Below are positions 36,331 through 45,314 of a stretch of DNA of 64,000 nt, piece after piece (within the stretch, counting starts at the first letter, position 1; each line of letters starts with the position of its first letter). The DNA lies in NCBI GenBank assembly GCA_031520405.1, contig GCA_031520405.1_4842.1; one strand, given 5' to 3'. A program made the translations under genes and the position numbers. The notes beneath the pieces are model-generated. The model was not told where the DNA came from and did not search any database. It was given only the letters and a program-made list of their open reading frames with translations. This DNA comes from a phage.

Positions 36331-36780
36331 ATGTTCCTTACATCCTTTATTGACTGGATGAATATCATAAATGGCCTGAGGATTCCTGTTGGGAACCTCG
36401 GGCTTTCTCGTTCTTCTATGCCGCAAATCGATGCCGACAAACAAGAAGATTTTCACAAATATCTTGAAGACAACGGCGTGTCCATAGATGCTGCGCAAGT
36501 GCCCATCAAAATGCTTCGTCTTACCCAGAACGAAATCAATAAAATGAAGGTCTGGAAGATTATGAAGCAGATCAGAAATAAGAAGCCCATGGGTCGAGTT
36601 TGGGTGTCTTCTGACAATTACGTTGTTGACGGGTCTCACCGATTTGTCGCTGCGTTGAACATGGACGGCAAACAGCGCATGAAGGTCTACAAAGTTGATT
36701 TGCCAGCGATGGAATTTGTTAAACTCGCTAAACAGTTTCAGGGTGTGCGATACAGAACGGTCAGCGATACCCGTTTCTGA
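36331..36780 (+). CDS. ParB/Srx-like nuclease-domain protein
   Basis: YVVDGSHRFVAAL matches the DGxHR..AA core of ParB N-terminal domain; GAGGTG RBS. Confidence 0.5.
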   Translation: MFLTSFIDWMNIINGLRIPVGNLGLSRSSMPQIDADKQEDFHKYLEDNGVSIDAAQVPIKMLRLTQNEINKMKVWKIMKQIRNKKPMGRVWVSSDNYVVDGSHRFVAALNMDGKQRMKVYKVDLPAMEFVKLAKQFQGVRYRTVSDTRF

Positions 36781-36859
36781 ATACGATAGTTTATTGAAAC
36801 CCTTTACTCAACATGGTGACAGCCCTATCATTTTATCCAATGAAATAAGGAGAATCACC

Positions 36860-37549
36860 ATGAAACGTTTAATCATCGGGGTTGTGCTGGCTGGTCTGGC
36901 ACTTCCTGCCACCGCCAAGCTGAATCCCACAGGTGAAAAACTGTGGTCTGATCTTTCCTACTGTGCTGGGTTCTCCCAAGCCGTCGCTATAGACAAAACT
37001 GGTTCCATAGAGAACTTTGCTGAACTCTGGGCCACAGGTAATGTCACAGATGCCGTTGTAAACGCTGGTATTGAGTTTAATCGATATAAGCAAGGCGCGT
37101 TCAACCTGAAAGGATATATGAACGACAAAGAATTTAACCGAGGAGGTATGGAGGCTGGCGATCTCATCATGACTGGTCGTATGGGCACACAAGGACGAAT
37201 GACCGTAAGACAGTGCCGTTCTCTTCCTTCTCCAGCATTACAAAAAGGTGTGCAGGTTGGCCGACGTCAGCTGGATCTCATCAATGATGGCAACCAATGC
37301 ATCAAGGTGTTTGAATATAGTGCCGACCAAGAATCAGATCGACGTTTGAAAAAGGAATGGCGGACTCGCGCCCTTGGCCTGAGAGCATGGCTAGTGGAAA
37401 ATGATCATTATTATGAAGACCGTGTTCAGAATGGTTTGAAAGATCTTTCCACTAATTTGTCTGTCAATCTAGACGACCCAAGGCTTTCGCGTGAACTCAA
37501 GCAAACAAGAATTGACTGTGATAATATGATGAAGGAGAACGAAAGATGA
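36860..37549 (+). CDS. secreted protein (signal peptide)
   Basis: MKRLIIGVVLAGLALPATA|K signal peptide with AxA cleavage site; AAGGAG RBS. Confidence 0.5.
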   Translation: MKRLIIGVVLAGLALPATAKLNPTGEKLWSDLSYCAGFSQAVAIDKTGSIENFAELWATGNVTDAVVNAGIEFNRYKQGAFNLKGYMNDKEFNRGGMEAGDLIMTGRMGTQGRMTVRQCRSLPSPALQKGVQVGRRQLDLINDGNQCIKVFEYSADQESDRRLKKEWRTRALGLRAWLVENDHYYEDRVQNGLKDLSTNLSVNLDDPRLSRELKQTRIDCDNMMKENER

Positions 37550-37866
37550 AAATCAAAATCTTATTGTTATTCCTGTACGCTTTCATGTCTTCCCAAGTAT
37601 TGGCAGCTCCGGCCAGTAAGTTGAATATTTGTGCTGCTTGGTTGTCTACATATCAACAATTTCATCCGGATGATAAGGACACATCAATCCTTTTATCTGA
37701 TTATGAAGGTGAATTGAAACGCCTTGATCTCTATAGTGTGGACCAGATAGAGAATGCGCTTGATTTACCCATGATGGAATCTGCTGCAGACAACAGCAAA
37801 CAGACTATTAAAGATTTGACTATGTGCCGTGAAATTGCAACTAATTTCGTTGGAAATCAAAGATAG
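37546..37866 (+). CDS. small secreted protein (signal peptide)
   Basis: MKIKILLLFLYAFMSSQVLA|AP signal peptide; ATGA overlap with upstream gene. Confidence 0.5.
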   Translation: MKIKILLLFLYAFMSSQVLAAPASKLNICAAWLSTYQQFHPDDKDTSILLSDYEGELKRLDLYSVDQIENALDLPMMESAADNSKQTIKDLTMCREIATNFVGNQR

Positions 37867-44053: not shown

Positions 44054-44581
44054 ATGATTGAAATATACACTGACGGGGCATCATCCCCTCAGAAGACACG
44101 AGCCGCTGGTTGGGCATTTGCCATCAGTCCAATCACTGGAGAGCAATGGAAAGTGTTTTATGGGTATTTACCCCCGCCGTCAACGAACAATATAGCTGAG
44201 TTACTCGGGGTTATAAACGCGATGAAGATCCTATGGAAATTCTCTAATTGCGGTGAACGCTGCATTCCCCCAGCCCGCATTATATCCGACAGCCAATATG
44301 TTATCAATAGCGTTTTGGAGTGGCGTCGTAAATGGGAATATGAAGGAATGCCGCCTAAGAACACAGAACTTCTGCTCGAGTTGTTCGATTATTATGACAA
44401 AGTTTGTTCAATTTGTGAACTTGAATTAAAATGGGTGAAAGGTCATGCAGGAACGATGGGCAACGAAATTGCGGATCAGTGGAGCGTTAGAGCCAAAGAA
44501 GATAGTTCAATGGTTCTTGAAAATAACCGTTTCTCGGTCAAGAAAGTCGTTGGTTCTTTCAATGAATTCATTGGTATTTGA
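44054..44581 (+). CDS. RNase HI-like ribonuclease H
   Basis: IEIYTDGAS, NNIAELLGVINA, DSQYVIN, WVKGHAG...NEIADQ match bacterial RNase HI catalytic motifs. Confidence 0.75.
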   Translation: MIEIYTDGASSPQKTRAAGWAFAISPITGEQWKVFYGYLPPPSTNNIAELLGVINAMKILWKFSNCGERCIPPARIISDSQYVINSVLEWRRKWEYEGMPPKNTELLLELFDYYDKVCSICELELKWVKGHAGTMGNEIADQWSVRAKEDSSMVLENNRFSVKKVVGSFNEFIGI

Positions 44582-44591
44582 GGATTATGCA

Positions 44592-45314
44592 ATGGGTATT
44601 CCATTCGTTTACTGTTTGGAAAGTAAGGATGGTCATTTGTATTTTGGTTCCAAGATTGGTGAAGAGTCTGATCCAAAGCAGCTCATGGAAACATATTTCA
44701 CTTCATCAAAATATGTAAAAGATTTGATGAAATCAAAAGGAAATGATTATTTTCAGGTAGTGGGTATAGAAATATTCCCCAACCAACCTGAAGAAGCGTT
44801 TTGGAAAGAACAACAATTGATAGAGTCCTTTTACGGCAACCCCATGCTACTAAACAAACATTATCAAACTGCTGGAACTAAACCGTGGACTCAATTAGGT
44901 AGAAAGGGGAATCAACAGTATTTGTTTGGCAATGGGCACCTCCGCGCTGGCAAAAACAATCCTATGTATGGCAAACAAGGAGCCATGAAAGGTATTACAG
45001 GGAAAGACCATCCTGCCTATGGCGCAGATCGTTCAGGTTCCAAAAATGGCATGTTTGGAAAATATGGAGAATTACATCACCATTATGGAACTCCTCCATG
45101 GGAAGTTCCAATAAGCAAGAAATTGGGAACTTCTAAACATTGGTTGGATGCAGAAGAAATACGTTTGGAATGGATTGCTGGCGCAAGGCAATGCGACTTG
45201 TCAAGAAAATATGGAATTAGCATAAAGACTATTGAAACTATGGTCGGCAAATTCCGTTCCGGTTGGATACCTTCACAAGACCCTCAGTGGATTAATTTTA
45301 AAGGTGGTGTATAA
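44592..45314 (+). CDS. Seg-like GIY-YIG homing endonuclease with NUMOD3-like repeats and C-terminal HTH
   Basis: FVYCLESKDGHLYFGSK GIY-YIG core; repeated G-x-N-P-x-Y-G-K linker motifs; HTH-like segment near C-terminus. Confidence 0.6.
   Translation: MGIPFVYCLESKDGHLYFGSKIGEESDPKQLMETYFTSSKYVKDLMKSKGNDYFQVVGIEIFPNQPEEAFWKEQQLIESFYGNPMLLNKHYQTAGTKPWTQLGRKGNQQYLFGNGHLRAGKNNPMYGKQGAMKGITGKDHPAYGADRSGSKNGMFGKYGELHHHYGTPPWEVPISKKLGTSKHWLDAEEIRLEWIAGARQCDLSRKYGISIKTIETMVGKFRSGWIPSQDPQWINFKGGV

Follow-up and report, generated by a model that had tools for sequence, protein, structure and literature searches.

A stand-alone ParB/sulfiredoxin-fold module of Kuttervirus phages as a candidate nucleotide-binding effector carried in the virion

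What is the small protein encoded at positions 36331-36780 of the phage contig GCA_031520405.1_4842.1 (NCBI GenBank assembly GCA_031520405.1), and at which moment of the infection does it act? The whole stretch of 64,000 nucleotides analysed here (hereafter the window) is a segment of a Kuttervirus (Ackermannviridae, ViI/CBA120-like), with 97-99% identity to many Salmonella and E. coli phages. The RefSeq label of the gene is hypothetical protein, and the automatic name in UniRef is 'ParB/Sulfiredoxin domain-containing protein'. A sequence-only reading of the window had proposed a nuclease-domain protein of the ParB/sulfiredoxin (Srx) type, possibly tied to DNA-modification pathways. The reading preferred here, to which we give a probability of about one half, is that the product of 149 residues is a nucleoside triphosphate (NTP)-binding, probably phosphotransfer, effector module carried in the virion. 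We weighed it against four main rivals. In decreasing order, these hold that the protein is an enzyme that acts only inside the cell, that it cuts DNA, that it is a switch or decoy without catalysis, or that it takes part in the hypermodification of DNA.

The gene and its translation signal are as follows.

36331-36780 (stop codon included), plus strand: coding sequence of the predicted ParB/Srx-fold protein, ATG start, 149 residues, 17.3 kDa, isoelectric point 9.9
36321-36326, plus strand: ribosome-binding site GAGGTG, read from the sequence, with GAGG (36321-36324) 6 nt before the ATG

Orthologs of 149-163 residues are found across the Ackermannviridae, namely in Kuttervirus, Taipeivirus, Limestonevirus, and Serratia, Erwinia and Vibrio phages, and the phages bearing them infect Salmonella, Escherichia, Klebsiella, Dickeya, Serratia, Erwinia and Vibrio. 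An alignment of 21 orthologs, with identities down to 39%, retains 27 invariant residues. The ratio of non-synonymous to synonymous substitution rates (dN/dS) lies at 0.02-0.06 in comparisons with orthologs, in which the synonymous sites are saturated, and the identical GAGGTG is kept upstream of the ortholog in the Dickeya phage LIMEstone1 (Limestonevirus). The open reading frame (ORF) is a real gene under strong purifying selection and not a chance ORF.

Which parts of the protein are under such constraint? The product contains NYVVDGSHRFVAALNMD, and the same ORF carries VVDGSHRFVAAL, as read from the sequence; the segment DGSHRFVAAL, on which the sequence-only reading was based, corresponds to residues 100-109 (nt 36628-36657). 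The following parts were distinguished.

36331-36375, plus strand: clade-specific N-terminal helix, residues 1-15 (helix 2-15 in the AlphaFold2 model, predicted local distance difference test score (pLDDT) 62-70, low confidence)
36409-36426, plus strand: N-terminal motif R27-x-x-M30-P31-Q32, ahead of the ParB/Srx core and outside the ~90 aligned core residues
36481-36735, plus strand: predicted ParB/Srx-fold core, ~residues 51-135, strand-helix-strand-strand-helix-strand-helix
36514-36549, plus strand: first core motif L62-R-L-T-Q66-N-E68-x-N70-x-x-K73, family consensus L[K/R]xTQxExNxxK
36607-36657, plus strand: second core motif S93-x-D95-x-Y97-V-V-D100-G101-S102-H103-R104-F105-x-A107, family consensus SxDxYxLDG[H/S]HR[W/F]xxA

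The helix at residues 1-15 was found only in the solo proteins of the Ackermannviridae type and lies outside the region common to the wider family; a role in virion targeting is possible. The RxxMPQ motif is invariant in the alignment of 21 sequences, and among 162 diverse domain copies its R, M, P and Q are conserved in 91%, 90%, 95% and 91%, respectively. In the same 162 copies, the first core motif keeps Q66 in 99%, E68 in 77% (D in 14%) and K73 in 86%; this motif would sit at the position of ParB Box I and of the catalytic Glu (E30) of the free serine kinase SerK. The second core motif, which includes DGSHRFVAAL, is the GxxR phosphate-binding (P) motif and aligns to SerK 62-EDMYLIVDGHHRWAGL. 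Its G101 and H103 are present in all copies, D100 in 99%, D95 in 96%, S93 in 93% and R104 in 91%, A107 being near-invariant, and position 102 is His in 77% and Ser in 14%, Ser being the residue of this clade. Such near-invariance of R27, M30, P31, Q32, Q66, S93, D95, D100, G101, H103 and R104 is as expected of an active site.

Do these parts amount to a ParB/Srx protein? At the level of sequence, the signal is barely detectable. Searches with the 149-residue protein gave no family in Pfam, even at E<=10, and no match in NCBIfam; neither the single sequence nor a narrow profile recovered a ParB/Srx protein among PDB sequences, and a broad family profile found nothing significant for ParB there. 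The strong match in PHROGs was to phrog_2859 (3e-45), an unannotated family, and the matches to families named 'ParB-like' or 'ParB-like partition protein' were weak (E 0.0016-0.016). The closest Pfam model, always just below threshold, was ParBc_2 (PF08857; Atu1540, PDB 2hwj), an uncharacterised and mainly bacterial family, for which the best relative scored 22.6 bits against a gathering score of 23.6 and the 149-residue protein gave no match. The best genuine PDB sequence matches of the broad profile were free serine kinases (5x0j, 5x0b and 1vk1), with non-significant E-values of 0.056-0.09. A profile search for the ParB/Srx fold, which the sequence-only reading had put forward as its own check, thus came close to failing.

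Nevertheless, this near-failure was overturned by structure. The AlphaFold2 model computed on the family alignment (mean pLDDT 82, predicted template modelling score 0.76) was compared with the full PDB by Foldseek, and the best 40 matches were all of the ParB/Srx fold. The alpha/beta core, ~90 of the 149 residues, is superposable on ParB-N/Srx structures, the first ~50 residues being an extension, and D100-G101-S102-H103-R104 lies in place as the GxxR phosphate-binding motif, where the core helix begins and behind a strand whose last residue is acidic or small. Structural neighbours in BFVD were phage proteins automatically named ParB/Sulfiredoxin. The protein is therefore predicted to have the ParB/sulfiredoxin fold with an intact GxxR motif, and it is the modelled fold that settles the assignment; the short DG.HR match is not significant on its own and owes its significance to the fold comparison. 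The core of the sequence-only reading was accordingly correct, but not new, as the fold is already implicit in the automatic names of UniProt.

If the fold is that of ParB/Srx proteins, to which family does the protein belong? The family signature can be written as RxxMPQ … L[K/R]xTQxE … SxDxYxLDG[H/S]HR[W/F]xxA. A search of 1.84 billion cluster representatives with the family profile retrieved 4870 clusters (50% identity) at E<=1e-3 and 2275 at E<=1e-10. Judged from these comparisons, the signature defines a large phage-specific ParB/Srx family that has no curated model and is distinct from both PF02195 and PF18763.

The name ParB calls to mind the canonical ParB/Noc/KorB CTPase domain (ParB_N, PF02195), with which the position of the GxxR P-motif is common. 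The 149-residue protein had no match to PF02195; one relative reached 20.7 bits against a cut-off of 26.3, and precomputed PF02195 matches on two relatives (P0215 and P0233) were not reproduced. As PF02195 is unmatched, the family was not covered by the 2025 survey of the ParB-CTPase fold, which was seeded with PF02195 (PMC12704722). The protein is a single domain in which we found no helix-turn-helix (HTH), no C-terminal dimerisation domain, no ParA-binding motif (L/F/I)G(K/R)G(L/F/I) and no Box III (ENxxR), the latter two as defined in PMC12704722. A canonical ParB acting in partition and DNA spreading would share the fold and could account for the weak PHROG matches, and for those only; this idea, in a lytic phage with no ParA nearby, is effectively refuted by the domain architecture.

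A second candidate family was the DdrB-like ParB family (PF18763, phage P1 DdrB), which is of the same superfamily and occupies the same niche, as a solo protein or inside polyvalent proteins. DdrB-like ParB is head-packaged and has been predicted to be an NTP-dependent early effector (Iyer et al. 2017, PMC5512222). The niche, which in our case is indicated by polyvalent relatives and an ortholog found in virions, is not family membership. P1 DdrB matches PF18763 at 2.1e-39, whereas the 149-residue protein and its relatives do not; the PHROGs differ (2299 for DdrB and 2859 for the phage family described here), and both hmmsearch and profile-profile alignment against DdrB were negative (hhalign probability 1.1%, E 0.047). 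The two signatures differ likewise, PQELQPRDR…IIGxDNVVESGNGR in DdrB versus TQxE…SxDxYxLDGHHRW in the present family. The NTPase domain of GmrS/DUF262 was also rejected, as the 149-residue protein does not combine its DGQQR motif with a close structural match to it.

By signature, the free serine kinases come nearest. The family consensus shares D.Y.(I/L)(V/L)DGHHRW.A with SerK (Thermococcus kodakarensis 5x0b, Pyrococcus furiosus 1vk1) and SbnI (5ujd), at the non-significant E-values of 0.056-0.09 given above. Like the 149-residue protein, SerK and SbnI lack ParB Box III, and they use the pocket for phosphotransfer from ATP or ADP to a small molecule; mutants of SerK E30 are named in PDB titles. 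They differ from the phage protein in several respects: (i) they have ~240-250 residues in two domains with a catalytic Glu, versus 149 residues, no C-terminal domain and an RxxMPQ extension here; (ii) they carry DGHHRW where this clade has DGSHRF; and (iii) they belong to cysteine and siderophore pathways, to which the phage protein has no such link. Sulfiredoxin (1xw3/3cyi, 6ky4), an ATP-binding phosphotransferase, likewise consists of one minimal ParB/Srx domain and is about as large, with GCHR at the GxxR position. Its catalytic Cys in (F/S)GGCHR is replaced by Ser here and by His in 77% of the family, it has no N-terminal motif of the RxxMPQ type, and the phage protein has no peroxiredoxin context.

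The likeness to serine kinases raises the question of whether the protein takes part in the hypermodification of thymidine in ViI-like phages, for example at a serine-kinase-like step. Homologs exist in PhiW-14 as well as in Kuttervirus, both of which are T-hypermodifying phages. However, the members of the family fall into thousands of clusters from phages of many kinds, and most of them are parts of polyvalent proteins; virion association is also a misfit for a modification enzyme linked to replication. Furthermore, no modification genes adjoin the gene here, in PhiW-14 or in Aeromonas P19, so that the link to DNA-modification pathways drawn in the sequence-only reading found no support, and we regard a hypermodification role as very improbable.

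In what company does the domain occur elsewhere? The best 150 relatives comprise 68 solo proteins (<=200 residues) and 82 multidomain proteins, some of which hold two copies of the domain. A Pfam scan of 67 multidomain relatives identified as partners Zeta_toxin (9), AAA_33 (5), CTP_transf_like (4), PolyA_pol (2), RelA_SpoT (2) and GNAT (2), and further HINT, ADPrib_exo_Tox, ART-PolyVal, Acb1 and Portal_Mu; the Acb1 fusions were confirmed. P-loop kinases are thus among the partners that recur, fused to the domain or encoded next to it. In the Ralstonia phage YL1, the domain lies inside a protein of 3168 residues together with an SLT lysozyme, LPD3 and LPD38, the last two being Pfam's own markers of polyvalent proteins, and other relatives are embedded with portal and XkdF-type head domains. 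When close relatives were excluded, the domain was located on 44 non-redundant viral contigs mostly inside proteins of 300-2300 residues, with terminase large subunits and 'cytidyltransferases' among the neighbours. By its domain content, the partner set is the effector repertoire of phage polyvalent proteins, and the Kuttervirus gene is a stand-alone copy of a phage module that others build into giant multi-effector proteins. The 149-residue protein is not itself a polyvalent protein, being a solo domain that is only homologous to a module of the true ones.

This company also bears on the idea that the protein is a DNase or nickase of the ParB-like kind, directed against the DNA of the host or of competitors. 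DNA of Kuttervirus phages is hypermodified, and it could be spared by such an enzyme; the protein is basic (isoelectric point 9.9), too. Osa, ParB-methylase and GmrS have been reported as non-specific nucleases, and a DNase was one suggestion of Iyer et al. for the ParB domains of polyvalent proteins, but the same authors favoured sensing or degradation of NTPs for them (PMC5512222). Among the 67 multidomain relatives scanned, no HTH, HNH, methylase or other DNA-binding domain was found, and the partners are enzymes that modify nucleotides or proteins. The label of a nuclease domain is thus not borne out by the relatives, and a DNase appears rather improbable.

Alternatively, the protein may be a non-catalytic, NTP-gated switch or partner protein, or a decoy that poisons defence proteins with ParB_N or DUF262 domains (GmrSD, BrxU, SspE). 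Hypermodified DNA is a target of type IV restriction, which suits a decoy. Injected small proteins of T4 are known to inhibit GmrSD enzymes (PMC12373910). In many contexts, the ParB fold is used as a switch that works with CTP, ATP or GTP (PMC12704722), and a ParB-dependent class of T-dioxygenase, a phage enzyme regulated by its ParB partner, has been described (PMC13229309). However, the protein has neither Box III nor the features for dimerisation that switch-type ParBs possess, and the sharply conserved polar residues D95, D100, H103, R104 and Q66 suit catalysis better than mimicry, while the tandem copies and the fusions to enzymes suggest an enzymatic module. We consider a switch or decoy to be a poor bet for these reasons.

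When could such a module act? In LIMEstone1, the ortholog (149 residues, 17.30 kDa) is 83% identical to the Kuttervirus protein. Mass spectrometry of LIMEstone1 virions detected an 'unknown structural protein' of 17.31 kDa, for which 5 unique peptides and a coverage of 35.6% were recorded. The GenBank record HE600015 (73878-74327) flags ORF101 of the phage as a 'confirmed structural protein'. The numbering does not agree, since Table 2 of the LIMEstone1 paper gives ORF102, and the record has ORF101 at 17.30 kDa; as ORF102 of the record is of only 9.45 kDa, the number in the paper is a slip. According to the LIMEstone1 paper, every unknown structural protein that it reports has a ViI virion counterpart, and the label 'structural protein' has been propagated in several database records. 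The LIMEstone1 ortholog is therefore a virion component.

Put together with the fold and the polyvalent relatives, the virion detection leads to the following mechanism for a virion-carried effector. The GxxR pocket of the domain would bind a nucleoside tri- or diphosphate, as the fold and motif suggest, and the domain would then transfer or hydrolyse a phosphoryl group on a nucleotide-type or other small substrate. Its chemistry would belong with the branch of sulfiredoxin and serine-kinase-like proteins and not with DNA clamps or DNases. A protein that travels in the particle is able to act from the outset of infection, and the module may do so as an effector of host takeover or counter-defence.

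Is there any hint of the substrate? A cytidylyltransferase-like domain that resembles nicotinamide mononucleotide (NMN) adenylyltransferase (NMNAT) lies near the family domain in 9 of the 44 non-redundant loci, fused to it in 6 and in an adjacent gene in 3. The PDB sequence relatives of this NMNAT-like domain are NMN adenylyltransferases only (NadM-Nudix 2qjt at 5e-7, 1f9a and 1ej2). As background, the same query and threshold retrieved 35 of 50,697 phage genomes (0.07%), all annotated as NadM-type NMNAT, in a comparison that mixes two databases. The best NMNAT match is in the jumbo phage LR756508 (135866-138613), where a single ORF of 915 residues begins with the ParB/Srx module, with RKDMPQY…VQNE…DGHHRW, followed directly by the NMNAT-like domain with GRFQPFHRGH. 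The C-terminal region of this fusion (~585 residues) had no PDB sequence relative; it includes KTDGQN, which is like the KxDG of ligases and nucleotidyltransferases. At another locus (L061), a NadR-like gene (NMNAT plus P-loop kinase) lies downstream of the family member, and in the Acidovorax phage ACP17, a solo homolog follows NadM-Nudix and NAMPT genes with one gene between. Homologs of NAMPT, ribose-phosphate pyrophosphokinase (Prs), ADP-ribosyltransferase and vWA proteins did not recur near the distant family members at the 44 loci.

The polyvalent-protein paper, the survey of viral NAD and ADP-ribose metabolism and the NARP3 paper make no mention of the association with NMNAT, and 'ParB' occurs nowhere in the full text of the NARP1/2 preprint or of further NARP1 papers. 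It is tempting, as a bolder conjecture that we hold to be improbable, to see in the RxxMPQ…DGHHRW module an unrecognised enzymatic partner of NadM/NadR-type NMNATs, that is, a virion-preloaded phosphotransferase or NTPase acting on NAD-related or other signalling nucleotides. If this is the case, the module, solo or within polyvalent proteins, would restore the pools of nucleotides or rewire them as soon as infection begins, and would be a new counter-defence component against NAD-depleting or nucleotide-signalling immunity, alongside NARP1-3.

A number of observations weigh against a virion-carried effector, and several of them concern the expression of the gene, which probably depends on the following element.

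35040-35110, plus strand: cassette of a terminator hairpin and a sigma70-like promoter (TTTACT-17-TATTAT), from scan matches

The cassette likely starts a transcription unit at 35157-36780, of which the gene is the last, so that the gene ends a short operon behind a sigma70-like cassette of the early type, and no T4-type late promoter TATAAATA was found near it. The virion evidence comes from one proteome, and in the virion proteome of Sajous1 (of the Kuttervirus type) the protein is missing at the corresponding gene numbers. In other myoviruses, the genes of solo homologs belong to early or nucleotide-metabolism regions and not to head modules. As for the chemistry, no characterised ParB/Srx family is linked to the protein by a sequence match above threshold, this clade has Ser in place of the first His of DGHHR, and E68, the candidate equivalent of the catalytic base, is conserved in 77% only, its equivalence to SerK E30 being positional. 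As for the substrate, the six NMNAT fusions form one lineage, which leaves about five independent arrangements, and no such NMNAT is present in the window or in Kutterviruses in general.

Part of these observations would be explained if the protein were an intracellular enzyme of early or middle nucleotide metabolism, its detection in virions being carry-over as for PhoH, ligase and gp44. The sigma70-like cassette and the want of a late promoter suit such an enzyme, and so does the absence of the protein from the Sajous1 list. Solo homologs elsewhere adjoin genes for thymidine kinase, dCMP deaminase/PhoH, RegA/clamp loader or NAD salvage, and LIMEstone1 virions also yielded non-structural enzymes, PhoH, ligase and gp44 being in the same data set. 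Nevertheless, the 'unexpected' proteins of LIMEstone1 were seen by a single peptide with <5% coverage, far weaker than the signal of the ortholog with its 5 peptides and 35.6%, and the relatives are embedded with SLT lysozyme, LPD, portal and XkdF-type head domains. We therefore think an intracellular enzyme unlikely, though it is the first of the rivals to be considered.

What is new relative to the sources consulted is the family as such, with the signature and size of the family and its distinctness from PF02195 and PF18763, the association with NMNAT, and the convergence of virion detection with polyvalent membership. ParB/Srx domains are now regarded as versatile NTP-binding modules, but a survey that starts from Pfam ParB_N recovers no part of this family. 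It is a core gene of the Ackermannviridae, phages much used in therapy and biocontrol, and a frequent building block of polyvalent proteins. With 149 residues, virion association, and a tractable phage and host, the Kuttervirus solo protein is a convenient experimental handle. The fusions and neighbourhoods with NMNAT turn the question of function into a concrete hypothesis of counter-defence centred on nucleotides or NAD.

The surroundings of the gene are of mixed character. Upstream lie genes for a vWA protein, an acyl carrier protein, a small ORF, an ADP-ribosyltransferase of 168 residues and an ORF of 92 residues, and downstream a spanin pair.

32106-34322: vWA-containing protein of 738 residues; its LIMEstone1 ortholog, ORF108 (81 kDa), was confirmed in the virion by mass spectrometry
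35456-35962: Alt/Mod-like ADP-ribosyltransferase of 168 residues (phrog_832, E 1e-15), two genes upstream of the gene in question
36860-37549 and 37546-37866: probable spanin pair, a protein of 229 residues with a signal-peptide-like N-terminus and an overlapping Rz-like lipoprotein of 106 residues (phrog_3843)
44445-45314: ORF of 289 residues between the genes for RNase H and the late sigma factor, a candidate Seg-type homing endonuclease

Since the vWA ortholog is also found in the virion, the region encodes at least two virion-associated proteins that are non-morphogenetic. In the sister phage Se-G, a cassette of 2.7 kb with Prs-like and NAMPT-like genes stands just upstream of the vWA gene; the two are a candidate NAD-reconstitution pair of the NARP1 type, and both are wholly absent from the window, where the insertion junction is at 31875/32018. 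In Limestonevirus, DenV and small ORFs occupy the position of the ADP-ribosyltransferase gene.

The cassette of 71 nt at 35040-35110 occurs a second time at 34684-34754, 356 bp apart and with 93% identity. The loop of the hairpin is inverted between the copies (CGTTTG versus CAAACG), and the segment between them (34755-35039) is absent from Se-G. These cassettes resemble the promoter-early stem-loop (PeSL) cassettes of T4-type phages. A further promoter-like site, TTTACT-17-TATCAT, is present at 36803-36831, before the spanin pair.

A second repeat is an element of 65 nt that consists of a GC hairpin, a ribosome-binding site, ATG and the codons for MTDQ. Its copies at 35403-35467 and 35962-36026 share 83% identity and open the ADP-ribosyltransferase gene (35456) and the ORF of 92 residues (36015), respectively, which suggests modular gene shuffling in the region. 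Outside this region, ~720 bp of the ORF of 289 residues is absent from Se-G; its product combines a GIY-YIG-like N-terminus (GHLYFGS) with the repeats G.KNPMYGK, GKDHPAYG and SKNGMFGK, which are typical of Seg-type homing endonucleases.

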